64,000 nt of DNA from Planctomycetota bacterium (GTDB lineage: Bacteria > Planctomycetota > UBA1135 > UBA2386): assembly GCA_046290465.1 (NCBI GenBank), contig JBKAGP010000001.1, positions 5,088,001 to 5,152,000 of the forward strand. Direction: 5' to 3'. The translations under genes and the position numbers were made by a program. Shown here one piece after another: positions 12,008 through 26,326 of this stretch; the stretch's first letter is position 1; each line of letters opens with the position of its first letter. The notes beneath the pieces are model-generated. The model did no database searches, had not been told where the DNA came from, and saw only the letters and a list, made by a program, of their open reading frames with translations.

Positions 12008-13009
12008 ATGACCGCTCCTGAAGCCCCCGCCGCCCGTTTCACCGAGACGCGCGAGTTCCTCGATCAGATCAAGTCCAAGGTCGGCACCGTCGTGGTCGGT
12101 CAGGACGTCGTCGTCGAGCGCGTGCTGATCGCGCTGCTGACGTCCGGCCACCTGCTGCTGCAGGGCGTGCCGGGCCTGGCAAAGACGCTGCTGGTCGCGG
12201 CCGTGTCGAAGACGGTCGACCTGGCGTTCGCGCGTATCCAGTTCACGATCGACCTGTTGCCGTCGGACATCGTCGGCAGCGAGATCCTCGACCAGAAGAC
12301 GCACGAGTTCCGGATCCACCAGGGCCCGATCTTCACCAACCTGCTGCTCGCCGACGAGATCAACCGCGCCGCCCCGAAGGTGCAGTCGGCGCTGCTCGAG
12401 GCGATGCAGGAGCGTCGGGTCACGATCGGCGGCGAGAACTTCGCGCTGCCGGCGCCGTTCCTGGTGATCGCGACGCAGAACCCGGTCGAGCAGGCCGGCA
12501 CGTTCGAGCTGCCCGAAGCGCAGCTCGACCGCTTCATGCTGCTGCACCGCCTCGAGTACCTGAAGCCCGAGGAAGAGAAGGAGGTGCTGCGCCGCAACAC
12601 CAAGCTGGGCGTACGACGTGAGGGCAAGGGCGCGGTCGCCCGCACCGAGTTCGACGTGCTCGACGGCCAGGACAAGGGCAGCGTCAAGCAGCTGGTCAAG
12701 GCGATGGAGGACGTGCAGGAGGTGCACGTCAGCGAGACGTTCATCGAGCACGTGATCGAGATCGTCAACCGCACCCGCAACCACCCGCTGCTCGAGCTCG
12801 GCTGCAGCCCGCGCGCCGGCATCTCGCTGGTCAAGGCTTCGCGCGCCCGCGCGCTGATCCACGGTCGCGACTACGTCGTGCCGGAGGACCTGTTCGCGCT
12901 GGCCGAGGACGTCATCCTGCACCGCATCCGCCTCAGCTATGAGGCGGTCGCCGACGGCTACACCAGCCAGCAGGTCCTGCAGGAGATCCTCAGCGAAGTC
13001 GCCAAATGA
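12008..13009 (+). CDS. moxR: MoxR-family AAA+ ATPase
   Basis: Walker A GVPGLAKT, RIQFTIDLLPSD, Walker B LLLADEINRA, ATQNPVEQAGTFELPEAQLDRF, SPRA. Confidence 0.96.
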   Translation: MTAPEAPAARFTETREFLDQIKSKVGTVVVGQDVVVERVLIALLTSGHLLLQGVPGLAKTLLVAAVSKTVDLAFARIQFTIDLLPSDIVGSEILDQKTHEFRIHQGPIFTNLLLADEINRAAPKVQSALLEAMQERRVTIGGENFALPAPFLVIATQNPVEQAGTFELPEAQLDRFMLLHRLEYLKPEEEKEVLRRNTKLGVRREGKGAVARTEFDVLDGQDKGSVKQLVKAMEDVQEVHVSETFIEHVIEIVNRTRNHPLLELGCSPRAGISLVKASRARALIHGRDYVVPEDLFALAEDVILHRIRLSYEAVADGYTSQQVLQEILSEVAK

Positions 13010-13962
13010 GCGGGGACGTGATCGACATGGGCGGTGGCGCGATGCCGCCGCCGCCGCCGCTGCCCCGCAAGCAGCGGCTCAGCATCCGCGAACGCGAGGC
13101 CAGCCTGCCCGGCATGCTGCCGGCCATCGAACCGTCGGCTGCGCGCAAGTTCGTGATCGCGATCCGTCGCCTGGCCGACGACCTCAGCTACGGACTCGAC
13201 GGTTCGCGCTTCCTCGGCTCGGGCATCGACTACGTGCAGTCGCGGCAGTACCTGCCGGGCGACCCGGTCAAGTCGATGGACTGGCGCGTCACCGCGCGCA
13301 CCAACCGCTACCACATCAAGGAGTACGAGGCGCAGCGCCGGATCCCGGCCTGGTTCCTGATCGACACGTCGGCGTCGATGGTGGTGTCGTCGACGAGGCG
13401 CAGCAAGTACGAGGTCGCGCTGCAGGTGGCCGGCGGGCTGGCGCTGGCGTGTCTCGATCGCACCAGCCCGGTCGGCGTGCTCGGCTGCGGCACGCGCGAC
13501 GTGCACATCCATCCGAGCCTCGCCAAGGACCAGGTGATGCAGTGGCTGCTGCGGCTGCGGCGCCACGCGTTCGACGAGCGCACGATGATGACGCGGCGGA
13601 TCCGCGAGCTGCGGCCGACGCTGCAGAGCCGTTCGATCCTCGTGATCCTCAGCGACCTGCACGAGCAGGGGGCTGCGCACAGCGCGGCGCTGCTGGCGCA
13701 GGAGCACGAGGTCGCGGTGATCCAGGTGCAGGACCCGGCCGAGGCGTCGCTGCCCGCCGGCGGCTTCCTGCGCGCGCAGGAGGCCGAGACCGGCCGTCCG
13801 TTCACCGCGCGCGGGCGCCGGCAGATGGTCGACCAGCTGCGCATCGAGAACGAGCTGCGCAAGGGCGGCGTCGACCACCTGATGCTGCGCACCGACGAAC
13901 CCTACCTGCACAAGCTGCGTCACTTCTTCCGCTCGCGCGGGATCTCGGGAGGCGGAAGGTGA
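13006..13962 (+). CDS. DUF58 domain protein
   Basis: GSGIDYVQSRQYLPGDPVKSMDWRVTAR, DTSASM and ILSDL. Lies immediately after moxR. Confidence 0.92.
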   Translation: MSGDVIDMGGGAMPPPPPLPRKQRLSIREREASLPGMLPAIEPSAARKFVIAIRRLADDLSYGLDGSRFLGSGIDYVQSRQYLPGDPVKSMDWRVTARTNRYHIKEYEAQRRIPAWFLIDTSASMVVSSTRRSKYEVALQVAGGLALACLDRTSPVGVLGCGTRDVHIHPSLAKDQVMQWLLRLRRHAFDERTMMTRRIRELRPTLQSRSILVILSDLHEQGAAHSAALLAQEHEVAVIQVQDPAEASLPAGGFLRAQEAETGRPFTARGRRQMVDQLRIENELRKGGVDHLMLRTDEPYLHKLRHFFRSRGISGGGR

Positions 13963-14774
13963 ACCACGTGACGTTGCGATTCCTGGCGGCGCTGCTGCTG
14001 TGCGCGGTGGCCGCCACCGCGCAGGTGCGCGACCAGCGCGAAGCCACCGTCGGCATGCGGGCCTACGTCGAGCAGGTCGTGCTCGAGGGCTCGGAGCTGG
14101 TCGCCGCGCCGACGACGATCCAGGCGCCGGTGCTGGTGCGCATCCTGCGCACGTTCGCGCATGGCGACCACCTCCGCTACGACCTCGAGTGGGTCGGCTT
14201 CGAGGAAGGCACCTATGACCTGACCGACTACCTGGTCCGCAAGGATGGCTCGTCGACCGAGGGGCTTCCCGACGTCGAGGTCGAGGTCGTCAGCGTGCTG
14301 CCGGGCGACATGTTCGAGCCGAGCGAGATCGATCCCGAACAGGGCCAGCGTCTCGGTGGTTACTCGGCGCTGCAGGTGGTGGTCACGGTGATCTGGGTCG
14401 CCGGCCTGCTGGCGATCCTGTTCTTCGGGCGCAAGCGCAAGGTCCGCGTCGACACGGCGCCGCCGAAGCCGACGCTCGCCGACCGCCTGCGCCCGCTGGT
14501 CGAACGGGTCACGTCGGGCGACGCCGAGGAGGCCCAGAAGGCCGAACTCGAACGGTTGCTGGTCGCGTTCTGGCGGGCGCGTCTCGACCTCGGCGACCTG
14601 AAGGTCGCCGACGCGGTGATGGCGATCCGTCGCGACGACGAGGCCGGCAAGCTGCTGCGCCACATCGAGACGTGGCTGCACGCACCGGAGCCGCCGAAGG
14701 ACGTCGATCTCGGCAAGCTGCTCGAGCCGTACCGTTCGGTCACCGCCGACCAGTTCCAACCGGAGGCCCGCTGA
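13959..14774 (+). CDS. Exported membrane-anchored accessory protein of the MoxR-vWA cluster
   Basis: GTGA overlap, signal peptide, one TM (VVVTVIWVAGLLAILFFG), cytoplasmic helical tail. Confidence 0.75.
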   Translation: MNHVTLRFLAALLLCAVAATAQVRDQREATVGMRAYVEQVVLEGSELVAAPTTIQAPVLVRILRTFAHGDHLRYDLEWVGFEEGTYDLTDYLVRKDGSSTEGLPDVEVEVVSVLPGDMFEPSEIDPEQGQRLGGYSALQVVVTVIWVAGLLAILFFGRKRKVRVDTAPPKPTLADRLRPLVERVTSGDAEEAQKAELERLLVAFWRARLDLGDLKVADAVMAIRRDDEAGKLLRHIETWLHAPEPPKDVDLGKLLEPYRSVTADQFQPEAR

Positions 14775-15695
14775 ATGTTCGCCCGTCCCTGGTTGTTGCT
14801 GCTGCTGGCGCTGCCGGTGATCCACCTCTACTGGGTGTGGGCGCGCCGCAGCGGTCGCTTCTCGATGCCGTTCGACTCCGACGGCAGCCGGCGCCTCGGC
14901 AGCGGCTGGTTGATGCGCGGCCTGCTCGGTATCGGCGAGTCGCTGCCGGCGCTGCTGTTCGCGGTTGCGATCCTGCTGATCGCGCTGCCGCAGGAACTGG
15001 CGGCGCCGAAGAAGAAGCGCGCGTTGACCAACATCCAGTTCCTGGTCGACATCTCCGGCTCGATGAGCGCGAAGTTCGGGGAGGGCAACCGGTTCGACGC
15101 CTCGATGAAGGCGATCGACGAGTTCCTGTCGTTCCGCGAGGGCGACTCGTTCGGGCTGACGTTCTTCGGCAACAACTACCTGCACTGGTCGCCGCTGACG
15201 AGCGACCCGTCGGCGCTGCGCAACGCGCTGCCGTTCATGGGGCCGGGCAACGCGCCGCCGGGATTCGGTGGCACCGAGATCGGCAAGGCCGTGCTGGGGG
15301 CCCGCGAGGTGCTGACCTCGCGGCCGGATGGCGACCGCATGATGATCCTGGTCACCGACGGCGACAGCCCCGACCTCGAAGGTGGCGCCGCGATGCAGAT
15401 CGCCAAGCGGCTGCGCGCCGACGAGATCCGGCTGTTCGCGATCAACATCCAGGACCGTGAGGCGAAGGCGCCGCTCGTCAACCTCGCCCGCACCAGCGGC
15501 GGCGAGGTCTGGAACCCCGGTGATCGCTCGGCGCTCGCCAACGTGTTCGCCGAGATCGACAAGATGAACAAGGCCAAGATCGAGCAGGGCACGGCCGAAC
15601 TGGTCGACTGGTTCTTCCCGTTCTGCGTCGCCGGCCTGAGCGTGCTCGGGGCGTTCGTCCTGTTCCTGCTCGGATGGAGGCACACGCCGTGGTAG
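14775..15695 (+). CDS. vWA domain membrane protein (BatA-like)
   Basis: BatA-type N-terminus MFARPWLLLLLALP, MIDAS DISGSMS, GGTEIG, LVTDG, C-terminal TM. Confidence 0.9.
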   Translation: MFARPWLLLLLALPVIHLYWVWARRSGRFSMPFDSDGSRRLGSGWLMRGLLGIGESLPALLFAVAILLIALPQELAAPKKKRALTNIQFLVDISGSMSAKFGEGNRFDASMKAIDEFLSFREGDSFGLTFFGNNYLHWSPLTSDPSALRNALPFMGPGNAPPGFGGTEIGKAVLGAREVLTSRPDGDRMMILVTDGDSPDLEGGAAMQIAKRLRADEIRLFAINIQDREAKAPLVNLARTSGGEVWNPGDRSALANVFAEIDKMNKAKIEQGTAELVDWFFPFCVAGLSVLGAFVLFLLGWRHTPW

Positions 15696-16666
15696 CGCTC
15701 TACGTGGCGCTCGGCGTCTTCCTGGTGGCGATGATCGGCGAGGTGCTGCACGCACGTCGCGTGCACCGCGTCCGCCACCTGGTGTTCGGCCCGACCGGCG
15801 CGCCCGCGAAGTGGGCCGTGGTCGCGCCGTTCGTCCGGATCCTGTCGGGCAGCTTGCTCGCCTGGGGGCTGACCACCCTGATCTACGTCGAGCCGCAGGT
15901 GCACGCCGGCGAGGAGATCCCCGACGAAGAGTGGCGTCACCTGCTGCTGGTCTACGACGTCTCGCCGAGCATGCTGCTCAAGGACGCCGGCGCCAGCGGC
16001 GACCAGACCCGCCACGAACGTGCCCGCGAGCTGATCGAGTCGATGTTCGAGCGCGTCAAGATCGGCCAGTACAAGGTCACGGTGATCGCGACCTACAACG
16101 GCGCCAAGCCGGTGGTCACCGACACCAAGGACATCGAGGTCGTGCGCCACATGCTGAGCGAGGTCGACCTGCAGTACGCGTTCAAGGTCGGCAAGACCAA
16201 GCTGTTCGACGGCATCGAGGTCGCGTGCCAGATCGCCCGGCCGTGGCGCGTCAACAGCGCGCTGCTGGTGGTCGTCAGCGACGGCGACACGGTGCCGGCG
16301 ACCGGCATGCCCGAGCTGCCGCCGTCGGTCGGCGGCACGCTGGTCATCGGCGTCGGCGACCATCTGTCCGGCAGCTTCATCGGCGGCCAGCAGTCGCGGC
16401 AGGACGAGAGCACGCTGCGCCAGGTCGCGATCCGGATGGGCGGCGAGTTCCACAACGGCAACCGCCGCCAGGTGCCGAGCGACATCCTCGATGCCGCCGC
16501 CAAGGACTCGCGCAAGCCGCTGCTCGAGCAGCTGACGCTGCGCGAGTACGCATTGATCGCGGTGCTGCTGTCGTCGCTGCTGCTGGCGTTGCTGCCGGTG
16601 CTGCTGCACTACTTCGGCACCAGCTGGCGTCCCGGCGTCCCGGCGGCGCGTCGCGTCGCGGCGTAG
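15674..16666 (+). CDS. vWA domain membrane protein (BatB-like)
   Basis: Two N-terminal TMs, MIDAS DVSPSM, VVSDGD, C-terminal TM. The true start may be the GTG at 15689. Confidence 0.85.
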   Translation: MEAHAVVALYVALGVFLVAMIGEVLHARRVHRVRHLVFGPTGAPAKWAVVAPFVRILSGSLLAWGLTTLIYVEPQVHAGEEIPDEEWRHLLLVYDVSPSMLLKDAGASGDQTRHERARELIESMFERVKIGQYKVTVIATYNGAKPVVTDTKDIEVVRHMLSEVDLQYAFKVGKTKLFDGIEVACQIARPWRVNSALLVVVSDGDTVPATGMPELPPSVGGTLVIGVGDHLSGSFIGGQQSRQDESTLRQVAIRMGGEFHNGNRRQVPSDILDAAAKDSRKPLLEQLTLREYALIAVLLSSLLLALLPVLLHYFGTSWRPGVPAARRVAA

Positions 16667-16670
16667 GGCG

Positions 16671-17216
16671 ATGCCGTTCTCGACCGACATCGCGCTGCGC
16701 CGCGAGGCGGAACCGCGGTTTCCGTCGCAGTGCGTGCGGTGCCTCGCCGACGATCCTGACCGGATGAAGTTCTCCGGCAGCCGCTTCTCGTGGGCCGAGG
16801 TGTTCTTCTTCTGGCTGTGGCTGTTCCGCAAGCGCGTGCGCGTCGAGGTGCCGGTCTGCGACGCCTGCCGGCCGGCCGTGCGCTGGCGCAAGTGGCTCGA
16901 GCTGGCGGTGTTGCTCGGCGCGACGATCCCGGCGGTCGTGCTGCTCTACCCGTGGCTGAAGCAGTTCGACCTCGGCCGGCAGTGGAACAAGCTGATCGTG
17001 TTGGCCGTGGTCGTGGTCGCGCTGATGCCGTACTTCCTGTGGTCGGTGCTGCGGCCGCCGGCGTTCGACATCACGGTGCGCGACGAGGTCATCGAGTACG
17101 AGTTCGCCAACGCCGACTACGCCACGGTGTTCTGGGAGCAGAACCAGGAGATGGTCGAGCACGTCGAGGGCTTCGACGACGACGACGGCGATGATAACGA
17201 CGAGGAGCCCAGGTGA
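16671..17216 (+). CDS. Hypothetical membrane protein with two CxxC motifs
   Basis: CVRC and CDAC, two TM helices, acidic tail. Confidence 0.7.
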   Translation: MPFSTDIALRREAEPRFPSQCVRCLADDPDRMKFSGSRFSWAEVFFFWLWLFRKRVRVEVPVCDACRPAVRWRKWLELAVLLGATIPAVVLLYPWLKQFDLGRQWNKLIVLAVVVVALMPYFLWSVLRPPAFDITVRDEVIEYEFANADYATVFWEQNQEMVEHVEGFDDDDGDDNDEEPR

Positions 17217-17638
17217 GCGGGGAGCCGCCGCCGCTGCCGAAGCCCCGCACCGGTCGCAGCCGGGCCGGGGTCCTGCTGCAGATCGGCCTCGTCGTCGCGC
17301 TGGGGCTGCTGTCGCGCCGCTTCCCCCTGCCGGGAATCCTTGCCGAGCACACCGGCGACGCGCTCTATGCGGTCGCCGCCTACTTCGCGACCGCGTTCGT
17401 GTTCCCGGCGGCGTCGCGGCCGGCGCTGGTCTGTGCGGCGTTTGGCTTCAGCGCGGCGGTGGAGTTCTCGCAGATGCTCAGCTGGCCGTGGCTACGGGAC
17501 TTACGTGCAACTCGGCCGGGCGCGCTGCTGCTCGGGCAGGGCTTCCAGCGGGCCGATCTGGTCGCCTACGCGATCGGCGCGGTGCTGGCGGGGCTGGGAG
17601 ATCGTTGGCGCCCACACCGCGACGAACCGGCGCCGTAA
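17213..17638 (+). CDS. DUF2809-like membrane protein
   Basis: GDALYA, VEFSQ and LRATRPGALLLGQGF..DLVAYAIG match the DUF2809 pattern. Confidence 0.8.
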   Translation: MSGEPPPLPKPRTGRSRAGVLLQIGLVVALGLLSRRFPLPGILAEHTGDALYAVAAYFATAFVFPAASRPALVCAAFGFSAAVEFSQMLSWPWLRDLRATRPGALLLGQGFQRADLVAYAIGAVLAGLGDRWRPHRDEPAP

Positions 17639-17723: not shown

Positions 17724-18437
17724 ATGCGCAACATCCTGCTGGTCGGATGGCTCCTGCTCCCTGTCGGGGCGTGGGCCTATCACGAAGGGCCGGGCCAGGA
17801 TCGCGTCGCCCTCGAAGAGGCGGACGCGGTCATCCTGGCGGCCCACCAGGCGGCGAGCGACGGCGACTGGAAGGTCGCCATCGCCGAATACGAAGCCGCC
17901 CTCGAGAAGCTGCCGAAGGACCCCGATGCCTACGACAAGCGCATCGCGCAGCGTCTGCAGATCGAGCTCAACAAGGCTCGCATGAAGTCGGAGGGTCTGA
18001 TCGAGGCCCGCGACGAGCTGGCGACGCTGGTCGAGCAGATGCAGGGCGAGGAGGACAGCGACCCGTCGCTGCTCCGCGATGCCCGCCAGGCCCTGGCCCG
18101 CACGCAGTTCTACAAGACGTGGCTGATGCGGCTCGAAGGCCTCGACCGCAAGGTCTGGGAGCCGGAGATCGAGGCTGCTCGCCAGAACTGGCGCCTGCTG
18201 GCCGAGACGGCCGCGAGCGACACCGAGAAGACGCTGCACCAGGAAGACCTGGAAGCGGCCGTGCGCCTCGCCCGCCTGGAGATGGAGGACCTGCAGGGCC
18301 TGCCGCTCCCCGGCGAGTGAGCAGGTTGAAAGAGCGGTAACAAGGCCGGTCGGCCTCGTAAGAGCAAGAGCAAGTCGAAGGGTAAGCCGAGCAACGGCGC
18401 TGGTTCGGGTCCGAAGTTCGGACGCGGCGGATCCTAG
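17724..18437 (+). CDS. Putative selenoprotein: N-terminal anchor, TPR-like helices, C-terminal UxxU motif and basic tail (237 aa)
   Basis: ORF from ATG 17724 reaches TGA 18318-20, then GCA GGT, TGA 18327-29, then 35 open codons to TAG 18435-37. SECIS-like hairpin at 18343-18356. Without recoding the CDS ends at 18320. Confidence 0.72.
18343..18356 (+). promoter_or_regulatory. Candidate bacterial SECIS hairpin AGGCC-GGTC-GGCCT
   Basis: 5-bp stem with a GGUC loop starting 28 and 19 nt after the two TGAs. Same closing pair and loop as the hairpin at 26006-26023. Confidence 0.65.
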
Positions 18438-18483
18438 CCCCCAGATTCGTATCCCCTCGATCTCCTACCTGTTTCCACACACG

Positions 18484-18511
18484 AAAACGCGGCCCATTGG
18501 GCCGCGTTTTT
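18484..18511. terminator. Bidirectional rho-independent terminator
   Basis: AAAACGCGGCCC-ATT-GGGCCGCGTTTTT between convergent genes. Confidence 0.88.
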
Positions 18512-18563
18512 CGTTGTACGGCGCGTTCGCCGATCCGGTTGCGTCGCGCGGTCGCGCCGCCGG

Positions 18564-21500
18564 CTACCTTGCCGGCGGGTTGATCTCGCGGATCACCGCG
18601 CCACGCTGTTCGTCGAGCACCAGCACCGCGTAGCGGGTCGCGCCGCGGTTGGGGTCGTCGGACAGGCTGACGTAGTCGAAGCGGCCGCGCAGGTCGGTGT
18701 AGCCGTCCTTGTGGAAGCGCACGGTGCCGTTGGGCAGGCGCGCGAACACCTTCACGTAGGTGCGTGACAGCGGCTTGTCGGTCTTCGGCTCGCTGACCGC
18801 GACCTGGCCGTAGGACTCGAGGAAGCGCACGTCGAGCGCGTTGGCGAAGTACTGGCGCGAGCGCACCAGGCCGCCGGCGCGGACCTCGACCAGCACGTTC
18901 TTCTGCCAGAACTGCTGCGGCAGTTCGTAGGCGAGCTGGGTGCCGCCCTTGGGCAGCGAGCGGGTCTCGCGGAAGTTCGGCTTCACGAACGCGGCCGAGG
19001 CCCCGTCCGGGCCGGCGAACGGCTGCGCCGAGAACGCGAACTCGACGTCGAGTTCGTAGTAGCGCACCTCGACCTCGCTGAGGTTCTTGTAGCTGACGGC
19101 GACGTCGCGGCCCTCGACCGCCAGCTCCAGCGCCGGCGCGGTCGCCGCCAGCGTCGCCGGCGTCTGCTCCTCGGCCTGCGGGCGCGCCTTGCCCTCGGCC
19201 TCGTCGAGCTGCGTCAGCACTTCGCGGAAGCGCTTGCGCCAGTGCATCGCGACGTGGTCCTGGTGGGTGCTGGCGATGCGCCGCGCCTTCTGCGTGTCGC
19301 CGGTGAAGAAGCACAGGTAGGCCGACAGGTAGTCGTACCGGACCCGGGCCTCGATGCCGTTCGGGTCGATCTCCGCAAAGGCCTCGAGCGCTTCCTCGAC
19401 GCGGTCCTGCAGCAGGAAGTAGTAGGTGACCGCGAGCCAGTCCGCGCTGTCGAGTTTCGGCCGGTAGCCGAGCAGTTCCATCAGCGATGCGTACTGCTTG
19501 GCCAGGTCCTGGTTGCCGAACACGCGCTGGCTGCCGAGCTGGTGGGCGCGCTGGTGGACCAGCGGGCTCAGCTCCAGGTGCTGGAAGCGGGCGCGTTCCT
19601 TCGGATCGATGTTCGCCAGCGGCGACTCGAGCCACGTGCCGCACTGGTCGAGGAAGTCGTCGCGGTGGCGCAGGTAGTCGGACGTCGCCTGCGCGTCGCG
19701 GTGCAGCAGCGAGTACGACCACAGGGTCGGGTCGAACGCGTGGCGCTGCTGCAGCTTGGGCAGCACCGCCTGGTAGAACGCGCGGTCGCGCATGCGCCAG
19801 GCGATCTTGCTCAGGTCGAGGCGCTGCACGTTGTGGCCGTCGAGGAACTCGAGCACCTCCTGCGGCGAGCCCTGCTGCGAGACGTGCTCCCACGACGTCG
19901 TGTCGATGCGGCTCGGCTCGGCGACGACCTTCAGCGTGCGCGGCGTCGCGAACGCGGCCAGCTTGCCGTTCTCGGCGGCGTGCACCGGGTAGTGCGCGAA
20001 GCGGCCCTCGGACGGGAAGTAGAACGAGTACTCGATCGTCTGGGTCGCGTACGGCGCCAGCGCGACCTGGCGGCCGCGGGTCCAGAAGCCGTTCTGCAGC
20101 GGCACGGCGCCGGCCGGCACCTGCAGCAGCACCTCGGCCGTGCGCAGGCTCGACGTCGGGTTGGTGACCACGACCTGGCAGCCGTAGGCGACGTCGACCA
20201 GGAACTCGTCGGTCACGAACGCATCGCGGCGCTTGCCGTCGACGAATCGGTAGCGGTCGTCGAGGCGGAAGAAGTTCTGTCCGAGCAGCAGCGGCTCGGC
20301 TTCGTTCGCCTCCTCGGTCGGCGCGATCTCCTTGCGCACCAGCAGCAGCGGCGTGGCCGCCTTCATCGTGGTGCCGTAACCGTCGGCGGTGACCTCGTGC
20401 GCGCCGGCCTCGAACGGCAGGTCGAGCACCGCCAGCGCGAACATCATCTCGACGAAGCTGTTGCTGGCCTGCACCAGCGCCGGCGACACGAACGGCTGCC
20501 CCGGCCTGGCGGACGCGAAGTCGAGCCAGAACTGGTTGGCCTGGATGGCGTCGGTGGTCGGGTTGCTGATCTTGCGCTGCCAGTAGTTGTGCTCGACCAG
20601 CAGGCGGGTCTTCTCGACCGCGGTGTAGAGGCGACGCACGCTCTTGCGTTGCTGCATCTCGAGGCCGAGGTGGCGGACCGCGCCGCCCTCCATCTCCTCG
20701 AGCACCTCTTCCTTGCTGGCCTCGTTGCGCTCCTCGGCGACCCGCTTGCTGTCCTTGCTCTTCTTGGCCATCTCGGCGGCCTTCTCGGCGGGTGCCGGGC
20801 TGGACGGGCCGGTGGGGCCGCCGGTGGTCGGGCCGCCGGTGGTCGGGCCGGCGGTCGTCGGACCGGAGGGCCGGCCGGCGCTGAGGCGCGGCGTCTGGTT
20901 GGGTTCGCGGGCCGGCGCACCGTCCGCGTTGCGACGCATCTCGAGCAGCTGGCCGAACGACTTGTCGCGGCCCTCGGCGTCGAGCGCCTCGCTCAGCAGC
21001 GACAGGTCGAACAGCTGCGCCAGCTGTTCGGTCGTCATCGGGCGGATCTCGAGCGCCTCCTTCAGCATGCGCGCGACCGCCGCCGGCTCGTCGCCGCCGA
21101 TGCGCCGCGCGAGCAGGATCTTCTCGACCAGGTTGAGCCTGGCGAACCGCCACGGCTCGAGGTAGCTGCGCAGGTCACGTTCGAGCAGCCACTCGTCGAG
21201 GAACGTCTTGTCGAGCTTGTTGGCCAGGAACGGTCGCACCACCGTGCGGAAGAACTCGGGGTCCTTCTGGTGCAGGAAGAAGTGCAGTTCGTGGCAGGCG
21301 TGCTCGCCGTAGAGCTCGAGCTTGCGGTCGCGGGCCAGGCCCGGCCACTCGAGCACGAACGCGAACCGCTGCAGCGATGGATCATTGCGGATCGTCGTGA
21401 ACAGCTGGAACGCGCTGCGCAACGAGTCGTGCACCTCGACCTCGGCGGCGCTCTGGGCGTCGAGCGCCACCTCGGCGCCGGCGGCGACGAACTCGATCCG

Positions 21501-24500
21501 CCGCGTCTCGATGAAGTGCCGGTCGTTGGCGAGCGCCTTCGGCAGCACGCGCGAACGCGGCTCGAGGCGGGTCTCGGCGCGCGTCGTCGTGTCGTAGACG
21601 GCCTGCGCGCCGTCGAGCGCGATCACGTGCACGTGCTGGCCTTCGCCAAGCTGCGCCAGCGGGATCGTCACGACGCCGTCGTCGTCGGGCGTCAGGTTGC
21701 TCAGCAGGCGCGAGCCTTCGGGCAGGTAGTCGAGGTTGGCGCTGACGCCGGCGTTCGGGCCGCCCTGGCCCTGTGCCAGCGCACGACGGTCGACGCCGCC
21801 GCCGCGCCGGCCGCGCGTCCGCCCGCCGAACTTGCCACCGCTGCCTCCGCCGAGGCCGACCGCGGAGTTCCAGGAATCCTGGTCGAGCTCCATCGGGTTG
21901 AGCAGCAGGCTCGGGCGGTCGAGCATGTTGCCCGGGTACTTCTTGGCGAACCGGCGCTCGAGCACGTAGCGGTATTCGTCGCTGAGCTTGCGCCCGGCGT
22001 CGTAGCTGCTGGCCAGGCGGTCGAGCGGCATCACCGCCGGGCCGTCGCCGGCCATGCCGCGCAGGCCGTCGAACAGGTCGTAGGCCGGCAGGTAGCGGGT
22101 CGCGACGACGTGCACGCGGGTGCCTGCCGTGGTGTTGGCGAGCTGCACGCGCACCGCGTCGTCGGTGGTCTGCAGATCGACCACGTGCAGCGGGCGGGTC
22201 GGCGTCGCCGACAGTGCGCGGTCGCTGCCGATCAGGTAGCGGTCGTCGCGTTCGCCGCGGGTGATGCGCACGGTGACGCGCTGGTCGGTCGCGTGCAGGC
22301 GCAGCTGGTAGTCGCCGGGCGGCAGATCGCGCAGCTCGACGAAGCCGTCGGCGATCGCCAGGTGTTCGAACGCATCGCGGTTGTTGCCGAGCAGCGAGAA
22401 CTCGGCGCGCGTCGGCGCGGTCTCGTCGCCCTGGTAGGGGATCCGGATCGTGCCGCCGGTGGTGCCGTGCAGCTCGCCGGGCAGGCGCACGCGCGCGTCG
22501 GTCAGTTCGAAGGTGCCGCCGCTGCCGCCGTCCTTGGTGACCTGCACGCGGTAGATGCCGGGCAGGCGGCCGAGCGTGATGCGGCCGTTGTCGTCGGTCT
22601 GCAGCGCCACCTGCACCGCTTCGCGGTAGTCGCGGTGGAACAGGTTCATCCGGCAGACGCGGCCCCGCTGCGGTTCGCCGCTCTTGCCGCGCAGCTCGAC
22701 GGCGTAGCCGGCGGTGGTGCGGACCAGCATCGGGATGCCGGTCTCGGCGGTCTTGTCGATCTGGTTGAAGTGGAACGAGTAGCTGCCGCCGGCGAGCGTG
22801 ACGGGCTTGCCGTTCATGCCCTGCACGCGGCCCGTCAGGCGGACGTCGAGGCGCGCCATGCGCGGCGGCACGCGGAACGCGTGGGTCAGCTCGCGGCCGT
22901 TGCGCAGCTCGAGATCGCGCACCTCCTGGGTGGTCGACTTGCCGTCGAGGTCGGTCGCGACGATCGTCAGCAGCGGCTGCTCGAGCAGTTCGAGCGAGAC
23001 CGGGTGGCCGGCCAGGTGCAGCTGGGTGCGCAGCACCAGGTTGGCGGTGTTGCCGGCGATGATCGACTCGCGGTCGACGTGCACGCTGCCCTGCAGCTCG
23101 TACGACTCGCCGCGGTGCGCGAACGGCGCGAGCGACGAGCGGTTGCCCTGGCGCAGCACCAGCTGCTTGTTGCCGGGCGCGGTCGAGAACGGCACCAGGA
23201 TCTCGCCGCGGTCGTCGGCGCCGTACTCCCGGCCGCCGAACCACGCGGTGGCGTCGGGCAGGTGTCGGCCGGCCTCGTCGTAGACCCGCACGACCTGGCC
23301 GGCGGCCGACGTGCGCTCGACCATGCGCAGCTCGCCCTTGTGCACGACGGCGCGGCTCGAGATGCCGTTGCCGACGAAGTCGACCACGTAGGTGCCGGGG
23401 TTGCGCAGCATCGGCAGGTCGAACGTCCGGCGCACGCGGCGCATCGGCGCGTCGTCGTACTGGAACGTCTGCTCGAAGTTGGCGACCACGCCGTCGAGGT
23501 CGATGGTCGCGTCGACCGACTTCTGCCGTTCGACGTGGTAGCGGAAGGTGTCGATCTCGAAGACCTTCACCAGCAGCGCCTTGACGTTCTTGGTGTCGAG
23601 CTCGAGGCGGACCGCGTCGTCGGCGCCGTAGGTGCGCTTCATGGTCGGCGGGAAGCGCAGTTCGACGCGCTTCTCGAGCTGCTCGAGGCGGGCCGGGTCG
23701 TCGAGCAGCGAATACCACCGTTCGGCGTCGCCGACGCCGGCCAGCAGCTTGGTCTCGGCGAGCACGGTCTCGAGCCAGCGCTGGTCGAGGTAGTCGCTGT
23801 AGGCCGCGACGGCGTCCTCGCCGACGAAGAAGTGCTCGAGGCAGGCGCGGACCAGCGCGGTGTCGGAGCCGATCGGATCGAGCAGCGTCGGATAGCGGCG
23901 GCGCAGGTCGACGTGCTCGGCGCGCTGCTGGAAGCGTTCGAGGTGCGCCTTGCTGGCGTAGCCGGTGCGGCGCGGCAGGCGGATGTAGGCGAGGAACCGC
24001 TCCTTGTCGGGGGCGCCCTGCATCAGGTCGTGGCGCAGCCAGTGGTAGAGCACGTGCGCCTTGAGCGAGTTGAACGACGGGCTCAGGCTGCGCACGAACG
24101 TCCAGACGCGCTGCAGGTGCTGTTCGCGCAGCTCGGCGTCGTCGTACCACGCCGTGTCGGCGTCCGGCTGCATGCGCGTCAGGTAGGCGGCGACGAACTT
24201 GCCGTTCTGCAGCAGGTCGCGGCGGAGCTCCAGGCACTGGTCCAGCTGGCCGCGGCGCAGCAGGCCGTGGATCTTGAGCGAGCCGAAGCCGCGGCTCTCG
24301 CGTCGCGACAGGTCGCGCACGATCAGCGCCGGCAGGTTGGGGACGTCGGGGCGGTCGAGACGGCGCAGCAGGCTGTGCAGCTGCTTGTCGTCGAGGTCGG
24401 CCGCGCACAGGCGCGCCAGCGCCGCGTCGGTGAAGCCGTCGACCGTGCCGCGGTGCCGGTTGAGCGCGCGCTCCGTCATGGTGGTCGGCGACAGCAGCGC

Positions 24501-24920
24501 CGGGTCGAGGCGCGTCGAGAGGTCGCTGCGCGCGCCGGGCACGATGCGCTCGTGCTGGAAGCGCAGGCCGAGCCGCTGCCGCAGGAAGTCGTAGGTCCGT
24601 TCCTGGTCGTCGCCGTAGCTGAGCAGCGCCTCGCGGTTCTCGATCTCGATGACGCGGTTGGTCCGACCGTGCCGCTTGATCCAGGTCGGCAGCACCTTGC
24701 GGACCGTTTCGAAGTCGCGCGCGTCGAGGCGTTCACGGCAGTGGTAGTCGTACCAGTCGGCGGTGCCCGGGATCAGTTCGGCGACGACGGCCGCCCGGTC
24801 CTTGGCCAGCGCATACGTCTCCTCGAAGCCGACGGGGATGCCCTGGGCCGTCAGCGCCGCCGAGCAGGCGGCGAGGGTCAGCAGGGCTGTGAGCGGGCGT
24901 CGTGGTGCGAATCTGGACAT
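18564..24920 (-). CDS. Very large exported hypothetical protein (2118 aa)
   Basis: ATG at 24920 followed by a signal peptide (possible LAAC lipobox). Coding-type codon bias throughout. C-terminus YVKVFARLPNGTVRFHKDGYTDLRGRFDY. Beta-rich macroglobulin-like segments are an inference. Confidence 0.85.
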   Translation of the reverse strand: MSRFAPRRPLTALLTLAACSAALTAQGIPVGFEETYALAKDRAAVVAELIPGTADWYDYHCRERLDARDFETVRKVLPTWIKRHGRTNRVIEIENREALLSYGDDQERTYDFLRQRLGLRFQHERIVPGARSDLSTRLDPALLSPTTMTERALNRHRGTVDGFTDAALARLCAADLDDKQLHSLLRRLDRPDVPNLPALIVRDLSRRESRGFGSLKIHGLLRRGQLDQCLELRRDLLQNGKFVAAYLTRMQPDADTAWYDDAELREQHLQRVWTFVRSLSPSFNSLKAHVLYHWLRHDLMQGAPDKERFLAYIRLPRRTGYASKAHLERFQQRAEHVDLRRRYPTLLDPIGSDTALVRACLEHFFVGEDAVAAYSDYLDQRWLETVLAETKLLAGVGDAERWYSLLDDPARLEQLEKRVELRFPPTMKRTYGADDAVRLELDTKNVKALLVKVFEIDTFRYHVERQKSVDATIDLDGVVANFEQTFQYDDAPMRRVRRTFDLPMLRNPGTYVVDFVGNGISSRAVVHKGELRMVERTSAAGQVVRVYDEAGRHLPDATAWFGGREYGADDRGEILVPFSTAPGNKQLVLRQGNRSSLAPFAHRGESYELQGSVHVDRESIIAGNTANLVLRTQLHLAGHPVSLELLEQPLLTIVATDLDGKSTTQEVRDLELRNGRELTHAFRVPPRMARLDVRLTGRVQGMNGKPVTLAGGSYSFHFNQIDKTAETGIPMLVRTTAGYAVELRGKSGEPQRGRVCRMNLFHRDYREAVQVALQTDDNGRITLGRLPGIYRVQVTKDGGSGGTFELTDARVRLPGELHGTTGGTIRIPYQGDETAPTRAEFSLLGNNRDAFEHLAIADGFVELRDLPPGDYQLRLHATDQRVTVRITRGERDDRYLIGSDRALSATPTRPLHVVDLQTTDDAVRVQLANTTAGTRVHVVATRYLPAYDLFDGLRGMAGDGPAVMPLDRLASSYDAGRKLSDEYRYVLERRFAKKYPGNMLDRPSLLLNPMELDQDSWNSAVGLGGGSGGKFGGRTRGRRGGGVDRRALAQGQGGPNAGVSANLDYLPEGSRLLSNLTPDDDGVVTIPLAQLGEGQHVHVIALDGAQAVYDTTTRAETRLEPRSRVLPKALANDRHFIETRRIEFVAAGAEVALDAQSAAEVEVHDSLRSAFQLFTTIRNDPSLQRFAFVLEWPGLARDRKLELYGEHACHELHFFLHQKDPEFFRTVVRPFLANKLDKTFLDEWLLERDLRSYLEPWRFARLNLVEKILLARRIGGDEPAAVARMLKEALEIRPMTTEQLAQLFDLSLLSEALDAEGRDKSFGQLLEMRRNADGAPAREPNQTPRLSAGRPSGPTTAGPTTGGPTTGGPTGPSSPAPAEKAAEMAKKSKDSKRVAEERNEASKEEVLEEMEGGAVRHLGLEMQQRKSVRRLYTAVEKTRLLVEHNYWQRKISNPTTDAIQANQFWLDFASARPGQPFVSPALVQASNSFVEMMFALAVLDLPFEAGAHEVTADGYGTTMKAATPLLLVRKEIAPTEEANEAEPLLLGQNFFRLDDRYRFVDGKRRDAFVTDEFLVDVAYGCQVVVTNPTSSLRTAEVLLQVPAGAVPLQNGFWTRGRQVALAPYATQTIEYSFYFPSEGRFAHYPVHAAENGKLAAFATPRTLKVVAEPSRIDTTSWEHVSQQGSPQEVLEFLDGHNVQRLDLSKIAWRMRDRAFYQAVLPKLQQRHAFDPTLWSYSLLHRDAQATSDYLRHRDDFLDQCGTWLESPLANIDPKERARFQHLELSPLVHQRAHQLGSQRVFGNQDLAKQYASLMELLGYRPKLDSADWLAVTYYFLLQDRVEEALEAFAEIDPNGIEARVRYDYLSAYLCFFTGDTQKARRIASTHQDHVAMHWRKRFREVLTQLDEAEGKARPQAEEQTPATLAATAPALELAVEGRDVAVSYKNLSEVEVRYYELDVEFAFSAQPFAGPDGASAAFVKPNFRETRSLPKGGTQLAYELPQQFWQKNVLVEVRAGGLVRSRQYFANALDVRFLESYGQVAVSEPKTDKPLSRTYVKVFARLPNGTVRFHKDGYTDLRGRFDYVSLSDDPNRGATRYAVLVLDEQRGAVIREINPPAR

Positions 24921-25117
24921 GGGTCTGGTCGGGTAGCGGTCTTGCGTTGGCGACGGGCGCGCCGGAGTGCGGCTCGATGCCACCGTCGGGAATTGTCGGG
25001 GTCCGAGCCGCGGCAGCAATGCGTTCCCGGGCTGAGGGTTCCGGGAAAGTTCGCGGCCGGATTGGGCTCGCATCGGGGCGGGCTGGACTGGGGCCTTCCC
25101 CCAACCCGGAGAATCCC

Positions 25118-26326
25118 ATGCAGATCTGCACGACGAACATCGTCCTCGGGCTGCTGGCGGCCTCCCTCCTCGTCTCCCCGTCCCTGCTCGCGCAGGAAGG
25201 CTCGGCCGACGCCGGGTCGATGGCGGCGATCGAGAAGGAATACGACGCCGCGAGCAGCAAGTGGATGGAGTCCTACCGCGCCGCGTCCAAGGACGAGCGC
25301 ACCAGGCTGATGGCCGAACGGCCGACCCCCGAGAAGTGGATGCCGCGCGTGCGCGCGATCCTCGACGCCAGCGCGGCCAGCGAGAACGGCTGCGCCGCGG
25401 CGGTCTGGATCGTTCGCGTCGCGCGAGCCAGTGGCGACGACCTCGGCCACGCGCTCGACGTGATGGCGGCGCACCACCTGGACAGCGACCAGCTCGGCGA
25501 CCTGATGGCGTCGCTGTCGCGCAACCCGTCGCCGATGGTGGGGCGGTTCCTGGACAAGGCCGAGGCGGCCGCCAAGGGCGAGATGCTGGCCAAGACGTGC
25601 TTTGCGATGGCGTCGCACCTGAAGTCGGCGGCGTCGACGGCCAACACGCTGAAGGACGCGACCGCCGAGGACAAGGAGCGCTACGCCGGCTACTACGGCA
25701 AGGAAGCGGTCGACGTGCTGTCGGTCGCCGACGCGGCTGCGCTCGAAGAGCGGGCGGCCAGCTACTTCGAGCGGATCCTCGCGGACGAGGGGATGAGCGC
25801 GGTCCCGCACTACCGCGAGACCTTGGGGGTGGCGGCGAAGAACAACCTGTTCGAGCTGCGCAACCTGTCGATCGGCAAGGTGGCGCCGGACATCGTCGGC
25901 GAGGACATCGACGGCACGCCGATGAAGCTGAGCGACTACCGCGGCAAGGTCGTGGTGCTCGACTTCTGGGGCGACTGGTGAGGCCCGTGCCGGGCCATGT
26001 ACCCACACGAGCGGTCGCTCGTGAAGCGTCTCAACGACAAGCCGTTCGCCCTGATCGGCGTCAACTCCGATCGTGACCGCGAGAAGCTCAAGCAGGTCAT
26101 CAAGGACAAGGGGCTGACCTGGCGTTCGTTCTGGAACGGCGGCAGCACCCAGGGGCCGATCTCGACCCGCTGGAACGTGCGCGGCTGGCCGACGATCTAC
26201 GTGCTCGACGAGCACGGCGTCATCCGCTTCAAGAACGTTCGCGGTGAGGCGATGGACAAGGCCGTCGACTCCCTGCTCGCCAAGCTGGAGAAGTCCGCGG
26301 GCGGCGATCAGGGCGGCGAGCGCTGA
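25118..26326 (+). CDS. Exported TlpA/ResA-family thiol-disulfide oxidoreductase, selenoprotein (UxxC), 402 aa
   Basis: RBS GGAGA and signal peptide. GKVAPDIVGEDIDGTPMKLSDYRGKVVVLDFWGDW-TGA-GPC continues in frame to RAMYPHE..GVNSD..WNVRGWPTIYVLDEHGVIR. TGA 25979-81 occupies the first Cys position of CxxC. Confidence 0.92.
26006..26023 (+). promoter_or_regulatory. Candidate bacterial SECIS hairpin CACGAGC-GGTC-GCTCGTG
   Basis: Perfect 7-bp stem with a G-initiated loop starting 32 nt after the TGA. A second hairpin, GGCCCG-TGC-CGGGCC, lies at 25982-25996. Confidence 0.75.

Follow-up and report, generated by a model that had tools for sequence, protein, structure and literature searches.

The window analysed here is a stretch of 64,000 nucleotides (nt) from a Planctomycetota bacterium (assembly GCA_046290465.1, contig JBKAGP010000001.1, positions 5,088,001 to 5,152,000 of the forward strand), in which a same-strand cluster of MoxR-type ATPase and von Willebrand factor A (vWA) genes ends with an open reading frame (ORF) that continues through two in-frame TGA codons (positions 17,724 to 18,437; Table 1). 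A preliminary description of this DNA proposed that this last gene of the cluster encodes a protein with two selenocysteine (Sec, U) residues. Our comparison with other genomes leads to the same view, and we consider the gene very likely, with little room left for doubt, to be a selenoprotein gene. Direct reading of the window gives an ATG at 17724, a TGA at codon 199, the codons GCA and GGT, a second TGA at codon 202, 35 sense codons and a TAG stop, which is the arrangement first reported (...LPLPGE-TGA-GCA-GGT-TGA, 35 codons, TAG). With TGA read as Sec, the product has 237 residues and its C-terminal part is ...LQGLPLPGE-U-AG-U-KSGNKAGRPRKSKSKSKGKPSNGAGSGPKFGRGGS. Public gene calls stop short of this tail. 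Among the best 120 of 1190 matches at 90% clustering, nearly all are 198 amino acids (aa) long, covering 84% of the query, and are named 'hypothetical protein' or 'tetratricopeptide repeat protein', a truncation by gene callers that had been anticipated. Folding places the G+C stem of a terminator 46 nt past the TAG, exactly as described earlier. A simple promoter and terminator scanner flagged nothing, this terminator included, because its T-run lies partly within the stem.

Conservation of the tail in other genomes

A six-frame search of 61 related genomes with the read-through protein as query returned matches to all 237 residues in 33 genomes, with one or two in-frame TGA codons in 31 of them and none in the two most distant. 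A profile search over 401 genomes sampled across the phylum found carriers in 45, and a scan of one genome per species turned up 261 encoding stretches; we retained 80 of them for analysis. Carriers in the latter scan include Verrucomicrobiota, both metagenome-assembled genomes (MAGs) of Akkermansiaceae and the cultured Oceaniferula spumae NT6N. We pooled 141 loci and removed identical tails, which left 111 distinct tails from Planctomycetota and Verrucomicrobiota; one locus at a contig end and one cysteine (Cys) form outside the motif pattern were left out of this set.

The reading LQGLPLP-(S/G)-(E/Q)-TGA-x-G-(TGA or Cys) was present in all 30 loci that we fetched. Their tails contain a Lys/Gly/Ser-rich stretch and a conserved end, ...GP..FGRGGS or ...GPPPDGSGS, followed by the stop, which is itself TGA in 13 of the 30. 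Differences in tail length among these loci are all multiples of three, and the tail stays in frame with the conserved end motif down to approximately 45% identity. Among the 111 distinct tails, 98 carry TGA at the first motif position, divided into UxxC (70), UxxU (14), Ux5U (11), Ux3U (1) and a single U without Cys (2). The other 13 have no TGA; 12 of them are Cys-rich, with two to five Cys, and one has no Cys. These 12 have a Cys at the place of UGA199, and homologues with a Cys aligned there include P0057, P0098, L051, L052, L063, L073, L075, L127, L137, L141, L145 and L149. Hence the statement in the preliminary description that homologues extend past LPLP with a Cys-rich, Lys-rich tail, whose failure would have spoken against a selenoprotein, was borne out. 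Comparison among genomes shows that UGA199 behaves as a conserved sense codon, with Cys in its place in organisms lacking the Sec machinery, and that UGA202 alternates with Cys. Within the genus, the tail has an uncorrected ratio of nonsynonymous to synonymous polymorphism (pN/pS) of 0.42 and the body one of 0.29, which indicates that the tail peptide is under purifying selection.

One may suppose instead that TGA199 is a true stop and that what is conserved downstream is an RNA element or a small ORF in its own right. Cys codons in place of TGA within continuous ORFs of other genomes, indels that all keep the frame and an end motif kept at approximately 45% identity all argue against this. 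The tail also showed no conserved independent start-codon context, as judged by reading the alignments without a dedicated test.

Several loci depart from the common pattern. L076 and L077 have a single Sec without a nearby Cys (USGTG and UDGSG) and retain the hairpin described below; their lone selenol would need an intermolecular partner. L081, P0133, P0156, P0171, P0263 and others have neither Cys nor Sec, and their tails are acidic and Gly-rich (GEGEGEG...). The C-terminal ...ARG.G...GS end is kept in these Cys- and Sec-free members, which makes it the most conserved portion of the tail. Near-identical genes of planctomycete or verrucomicrobial type were found in MAGs labelled Luminiphilus, Rhodobiaceae and Paracoccaceae (L082, L138 and L153); these odd labels are probably binning errors and not gene transfer. 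The locus of O. spumae NT6N (L139, NZ_AP026866.1), a cultured verrucomicrobium with a complete genome, has a UQGC form, and the stem of its hairpin is UCGGGC/GCCCGA.

A conserved hairpin downstream of the UGA codons

The preliminary description placed a C(GGUC)G hairpin 28 and 19 nt downstream of the two TGAs as a candidate Sec insertion sequence (SECIS). The hairpin is present (Table 1), with 27 nt between TGA199 and the first loop G and 18 nt between TGA202 and the same G, the discrepancy being one of counting convention. Counted from the U of each UGA, the first loop G lies at 30 nt for UGA199 and 21 nt for UGA202. A C-GGUC-G hairpin with a stem of at least four pairs occurs in 98 of 98 TGA forms and in 0 of 13 non-TGA forms, an association with TGA that is again difficult to explain if TGA199 were a true stop. 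In the TGA forms the hairpin is found 21-30 nt downstream, or 42 nt in a subgroup having a second hairpin, and the UGA nearest to the first loop G is 21 or 24 nt away in nearly all forms.

The stem varies in sequence and keeps its pairing. At least 12 stem sequences were seen among the TGA forms, including AGGCC, GCCGC, CGGGC, GUCGC, GCCCC, AGCCC and GCCUC. In the alignment of 30 loci the five core stem pairs are kept nearly everywhere, and each variable pair shows 7-11 double changes. The covariation score, from an alignment anchored on the hairpin itself, was 0.62, as compared with 0.20 ± 0.03 in shuffles (0 of 500 reached 0.62) and 0.02-0.27 with slid partners; owing to shared ancestry, the independent stem changes are fewer than the cells counted. 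The peptide encoded over the stem varies alongside (KAGRP, GRGRG, RPGRG, GGRPN, KPGRA), from which it follows that the RNA and not the peptide is conserved there.

In Escherichia coli fdhF the upper stem-loop starts 11 nt past the UGA, and SelB requires its loop bases G23 and U24 (PMC8659212). The hairpin of the window is alike in being a small stem-loop that has G and U in its apical loop and lies just 3' of the UGA, and in its geometry from UGA202 to the loop, the loop G being at 1-based position 22 (fdhF side from PMC8659212). It is unlike fdhF-type elements in that its core has no bulged U, its tetraloop is closed by a C-G pair, it has no Rfam match, and it apparently also acts on a second UGA that lies 9 nt farther 5'.

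The idea of two Sec residues served by one SECIS held by inference: a single conserved hairpin was found in 14 of 14 distinct UxxU tails, and because only one is conserved, it most likely serves both UGAs in these forms. A sister group adds two-hairpin forms. The Ux5U forms have an extra 7-bp hairpin whose start is 11 nt past the first UGA and whose loop contains the second UGA, and each UGA in these forms thus has its own predicted element. In the members L062, L123-L126, L129, L131, L133, L150, L153, L154, L160 and L047 the motif is U-x-G-N-G-T-U, with UGAs 18 nt apart and two tandem hairpins, the first with a C-UGAAAC-G loop and the second being the usual GGUC one.

That the more widely spaced UGAs of the sister group have one hairpin each suggests that a single one may serve two poorly. 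In the window, a second SelB complex would have to load the same hairpin quickly for a UGA only three codons on. It could then be that UGA199 alone is decoded efficiently and that UGA202 mostly terminates, giving chiefly a 201-residue protein ending in ...GEUAG and little of the long tail. We find this improbable. In each of the 14 distinct UxxU forms the tail past UGA202 is in frame and closes with the same motif, UGA202 stands at the canonical 21 nt from the loop by the geometry given in PMC8659212, and UxxU selenoprotein families are already catalogued (PMC13188914).

Several observations weigh against the selenoprotein reading. An opening of 35 codons is unremarkable at such a G+C content, and frame +1 is open across the same stretch too. 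The tail codons are open, as the preliminary description stated, and its claim that they are mostly preferred ones held in part: the G+C content at third codon positions (GC3) is 0.71 in the tail, 0.91 in the body and 0.94-0.96 in the neighbouring genes. The SECIS region folds no better than its shuffles (z = -0.74), and a scan of 18200-18560 with Rfam matched no SECIS family, giving only weak sub-threshold hits over the terminator. The distance from UGA199 to the loop in UxxU forms, 30 nt, is 9 nt beyond the E. coli geometry. In weak support of the selenoprotein reading, contigs from RNA libraries of two studies span both TGAs into the tail (18208-18373 with 0 differences, and 18303-18400), with the variants 18335 C>T and 18338 T>C at third codon positions, both synonymous. 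These RNA-library data consist of contigs alone (shares 0.10-0.16), their uncovered parts being uninformative, and they are compatible with DNA carry-over and silent on translation. With single-genome signals this weak, the verdict rests on comparison with other genomes, and with no thermodynamic signal the argument for a SECIS rests on covariation. The calls ending at 198 aa, the lower GC3 of the tail and the thermodynamically ordinary hairpin region are also what a true stop at TGA199 would predict; set against the comparative results above, we regard such a stop as very improbable indeed.

Selenocysteine machinery

The presence of Sec machinery in the genome was a second point on which the preliminary proposal could have failed, and it is present. 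The tRNA-Sec scored 72.8 bits and was called SeC(tca) by ARAGORN, and matches were found to selA (453 bits), selB (354 bits) and selD (352 bits). The selD gene (L018, C1:1309619-1310557, minus strand) adjoins selA and itself carries an in-frame TGA (...SSAGU...). The region 3' of this TGA has no obvious GGUC tetraloop, and SelB of the source organism may accept more than one loop type. Among the 61 relatives, selA was found in 60, the exception being an 81% complete genome with a TGA form. Two relatives with Cys forms also have selA, and with a distribution of 60 of 61 that includes them, the gene is uninformative as a discriminator among close relatives. In five complete genomes of another family (99-100% complete) with Cys-rich or Cys-free forms, selA was above the cut-off in none.

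Predicted structure of the protein

The N-terminus, MRNILLVGWLLLPVGAWA, is followed by YHEGPGQ, and in alignment A2 a small-x-A motif and A-Y-H-x-G-P-G-Q are invariant or nearly so. Its hydrophobicity is below the transmembrane (TM) threshold and lower than that of the TM helices of neighbouring proteins. This segment looks like a cleavable signal peptide, from which we infer export.

An AlphaFold2 (AF2) model had a predicted local distance difference test (pLDDT) score of 79 and a predicted template modelling score (pTM) of 0.69. It describes an all-helical repeat up to residue 190, with pLDDT >90 over most of residues 30-180, and a tail (residues 200-237) without secondary structure, with pLDDT <50 at residues 200-230 and 235-237. 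The best Foldseek matches were BamD, the tetratricopeptide repeat (TPR) domain of YbgF and designed TPRs, all weak (E = 7e-3 and up), and the Pfam models TPR_14 (18.8 bits) and TPR_11 (17.7 bits) matched below their cut-offs. In NCBIfam release 20 a chance-level match alone was found (17.5 bits against a cut-off of 750 bits). No thioredoxin fold was found at the motif, the modelled body being all-helical and without a match to Pfam families of the thioredoxin type. This agrees with the earlier designation as a non-thioredoxin protein, here predicted to be a TPR-like repeat with a disordered tail. The mature body contains no Cys, leaving the two Sec as sole chalcogen residues. Residues 203-237 of the tail include eight Lys and three Arg and no acidic residue; hence, in the model, the Sec motif is in a disordered, strongly basic tail.

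Gene neighbourhood

Operons of the MoxR-DUF58-BatA-BatB type are widespread, and to our knowledge the Bat/MoxR-vWA envelope complexes have had no function assigned since 1999. The cluster in the window is listed in Table 1 together with the elements of the selenoprotein gene. In 53 of 61 related loci the same strand carries a BatB-like gene upstream, next to the selenoprotein gene wherever DUF2809 is missing. The gene of the 181-aa protein occurs in 8 of the 61 loci and that of DUF2809 in 17, and both are lineage-specific insertions, found in just a part of the lineage of the window. Since the BatB-like gene is the immediate neighbour outside the genus or lineage of the window, the selenoprotein gene holds the position of batC.

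Table 1. Genes and sequence elements of the MoxR/vWA cluster and of the putative selenoprotein gene (positions in the window; residues numbered in the 237-residue product unless a neighbouring protein is concerned).
Feature	Position	Strand	Basis and remarks
MoxR-type AAA+ ATPase, first gene of cluster	12008..13009	+	Pfam AAA_3 (1.3e-62), AAA_lid_2
DUF58 protein (vWA-like)	13006..13962	+	Pfam DUF58 (3.3e-37)
Membrane protein, no family	13959..14774	+	Signal-like N-terminus, one TM segment (138-156); no Pfam or NCBIfam match
BatA-like membrane vWA protein	14775..15695	+	Pfam VWA_2 and VWA; three hydrophobic segments
BatB-like membrane vWA protein	15674..16666	+	Pfam VWA_2; homologue directly 5' of the selenoprotein gene in most relatives
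Two genes inserted between batB-like and selenoprotein genes	16671..17638	+	181-aa protein and DUF2809
181-aa protein	16671..17216	+	Two CxxC pairs (QCVRC, VCDAC), two TM segments, acidic C-terminus; no family match
DUF2809 protein	17213..17638	+	Pfam
Putative selenoprotein coding sequence	17724..18437	+	237 codons, predicted Sec at 199 and 202, TAG stop; full-length conservation in relatives with in-frame TGA
Predicted signal-peptide-like N-terminus	17724..17777	+	Sequence reading and invariant columns of alignment A2
Predicted TPR-like all-helical body, residues 19-198	17778..18317	+	AF2 model; ends in invariant LQGLPLP
UGA199, predicted Sec, motif position 1 of UxxU	18318..18320	+	TGA in 98 of 111 distinct tails, Cys in 12 of 13 others
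UGA202, predicted Sec, motif position 2 of UxxU	18327..18329	+	TGA in 14 distinct tails, Cys in 70; tail 3' conserved in both groups
Coding tail, residues 203-237	18330..18434	+	Gly/Ser/Pro-rich, basic, predicted disordered; end ...GPKFGRGGS
Predicted SECIS core hairpin	18343..18356	+	Stem AGGCC (18343-18347), loop GGUC (18348-18351), stem GGCCU (18352-18356)
TAG stop	18435..18437	+	Read from the letters
Terminator hairpin	18477..18517		-25.9 kcal/mol, z = -6.5; between the selenoprotein gene and a convergent minus-strand gene ending at 18564

Beyond the terminator, the convergent ORF at 18564-26006 on the minus strand could encode up to 2480 aa; its GC3 of 0.90 is coding-like and it has no Pfam match. 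A plus-strand ORF of 2022 aa that overlaps it has a GC3 of 0.71 and is probably spurious. The Pfam search of the large neighbouring ORFs gave no match.

The likeness to BatC of the Bacteroides aerotolerance (Bat) operon rests on gene position and predicted helical fold: both proteins have a hydrophobic N-terminus and a gene that comes directly after a batB-like vWA gene in a MoxR-DUF58-vWA-vWA cluster, and the helical repeat predicted here may be of the TPR type, as in BatC. In the genus of the window, unlike batC, the gene is separated from batB by two extra genes. We know of no Sec/Cys tail described for BatC, and the literature that we searched mentions none. Bat proteins have been proposed to assemble, by way of their vWA and TPR domains, into a complex associated with the membrane. 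This envelope complex has been tied to periplasmic reducing power: it would either reduce proteins of the periplasm that have become oxidised or export reducing power, and in Bacteroides reducing agents partly rescued a bat mutant (PMC3557215).

Relation to known selenoproteins

No Pfam or NCBIfam release 20 model exists for the family, which comprises 950 representatives at 50% clustering, and a protein-atlas search with the 198-aa form returned just the family's own clusters, unnamed or labelled 'TPR'. The curated models of selenoprotein families to which a 2026 review refers are kept in NCBIfam, and the available text of that review names no selenoprotein in connection with TPR, Planctomycetes, von Willebrand, aerotolerance or MoxR (PMC13188914). 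No such family appears in the article text of the deep-Sep paper (PMC12013277) or of the BSepDB paper (PMC13326102), supplements and BSepDB entries being outside this search, nor in the available portions of the GOS selenoproteome (PMC2398784) and of a preprint (10.1101/2022.07.06.499078). Table S9 of PMC4807772 lists one 'hypothetical' planctomycete selenoprotein candidate with a SECIS and a Cys homologue in Rhodopirellula sallentina, which could belong to the same family. We rate the protein as a probable new selenoprotein family and not as a new mechanism, with the GOS 'hypothetical protein GOS_A' outside this comparison.

Catalogued UxxU and UxxC selenoproteins include thioredoxin-like, peroxiredoxin-like, DsbA-like, FmdB-family and predicted metal-binding UxxU proteins, certain of which carry two Sec at a distance of three residues (PMC13188914). 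The protein of the window shares with these bacterial selenoproteins a Sec placed first in a CxxC-type motif, Cys homologues and a SECIS in the coding sequence just past the UGA. It differs from them in having no thioredoxin fold, in carrying the motif in a basic disordered C-terminal tail behind a TPR-like repeat, and in matching no Pfam or NCBIfam selenoprotein model.

A resemblance of design exists with the eukaryotic selenoprotein S, SELENOS (VIMP), in which helices are followed by a disordered Pro/Arg/Gly-rich C-terminal segment with a reactive Sec, where Sec and a nearby Cys form a selenylsulfide, and whose partner is the AAA+ ATPase VCP/p97 (PMC13524514). The likeness (a helical protein, a disordered Sec tail and a link to an AAA+ ATPase) is a functional analogy in design only and not homology. 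SELENOS faces the cytosol and has a penultimate Sec with a 13-residue spacer to Cys, whereas the tail of the window protein is predicted to be periplasmic, with UxxU/C at the tail base approximately 36 residues from the C-terminus.

Possible function

In the mechanism that we propose, SelB with Sec-tRNA(Sec) would bind the hairpin and deliver Sec at UGA199 and then, from the same hairpin, at UGA202. The protein would be exported through its AxA-type signal peptide, and the TPR-like body would dock onto the membrane vWA proteins, BatA- and BatB-like, that the MoxR-DUF58 cluster encodes. Against this mechanism as a whole, the topology of these two vWA proteins was ambiguous by hydropathy and K+R counts. 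The U-x-x-U/C at the base of the 39-residue disordered basic tail would be a mobile selenol/thiol redox arm, cycling between a diselenide or selenylsulfide and the reduced state, with periplasmic partner or substrate proteins as its targets. Taken as a whole, a 237-residue selenoprotein cut to 198 residues by gene callers, together with this mechanism, is our best explanation of the locus, with a probability of roughly 0.85.

For the function of the tail by itself we are less sure, and we see about an even chance that it works as a selenol/thiol redox arm of a Bat/MoxR envelope complex. This reading draws on the place of Sec, which leads a CxxC-type motif just as it does in redox selenoproteins already catalogued (PMC13188914), on the forms with a single Sec and no Cys, and on its fit with the published Bat hypothesis (PMC3557215). 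Weighing against it, a Leptospira bat deletion gave no oxidative-stress phenotype, Bat function being said there to remain 'elusive' (PMC3557215). The distribution of tails also counts against a redox arm. We counted tail classes at 50% identity in the best 150 of the 950 representatives: 32 end at the Sec codon, 41 have a tail with one to seven Cys, 15 have a tail without Cys, and 62 are outside the pattern, the last including fragments and some Cys-rich forms with a variant motif. As 15 of the 56 representatives with recognisable tails lack Cys, the family can do without the chalcogen motif. Cys forms, in addition, often have four to seven Cys in 25 residues, which is more like metal binding.

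A real selenoprotein in which the Sec/Cys cluster forms an arm that binds metals or metalloids, acting as a metallochaperone or sensor, would fit MoxR-vWA systems that mature metal centres. Insertion of metal cofactors is aided by ATPases of the MoxR family such as CoxD, NorQ and MoxR. The clusters of Cys forms, for example CKGCCSGxCxC, or CxCxC with further Cys, reach seven Cys in 25 residues, UxxU/UxxC motifs are listed for predicted metal-binding selenoproteins (PMC13188914), and vWA domains bind metals at metal-ion-dependent adhesion (MIDAS) sites (PMC3557215). However, the Sec forms keep one or two chalcogen residues, and the two distinct forms with a single Sec have no Cys at all, too few ligands per chain for a metal site, and Sec stands at the N-terminal place of the CxxC-like motif, as in redox selenoproteins (PMC13188914). 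We therefore find a metal-binding arm possible and on the whole unlikely, and retain the redox arm as the preferred function.

In its most general form, we put forward tentatively, and at less than even odds, that Bat/MoxR-vWA complexes of Planctomycetota and Verrucomicrobiota have a catalytic group of their own, a Sec or Cys-cluster arm on a secreted TPR subunit for periplasmic redox or metal transfer. In this proposal one minimal C-GGUC-G hairpin would decode two UGAs 9 nt apart, and in the sister clade, where two SECIS elements lie in tandem, the loop of the leading one would contain the second UGA.

Implications

Hundreds of database entries end at 198 aa, which hides the only reactive residues of the protein. 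With these restored, the family would add to the known selenoproteins a non-thioredoxin one whose Sec lies in a disordered basic tail, in its design a bacterial parallel to SELENOS, and it offers natural material on how one SECIS could serve two closely spaced UGAs. It would also provide the first candidate redox or metal-binding group for a Bat-type operon. A Sec/Cys motif on the subunit in the BatC position makes the idea of periplasmic reducing power testable, and the metal-handling alternative likewise, and a cultured carrier with a complete genome exists in O. spumae NT6N (L139). If true, the use of selenium would reveal the purpose of Bat/MoxR-vWA operons.

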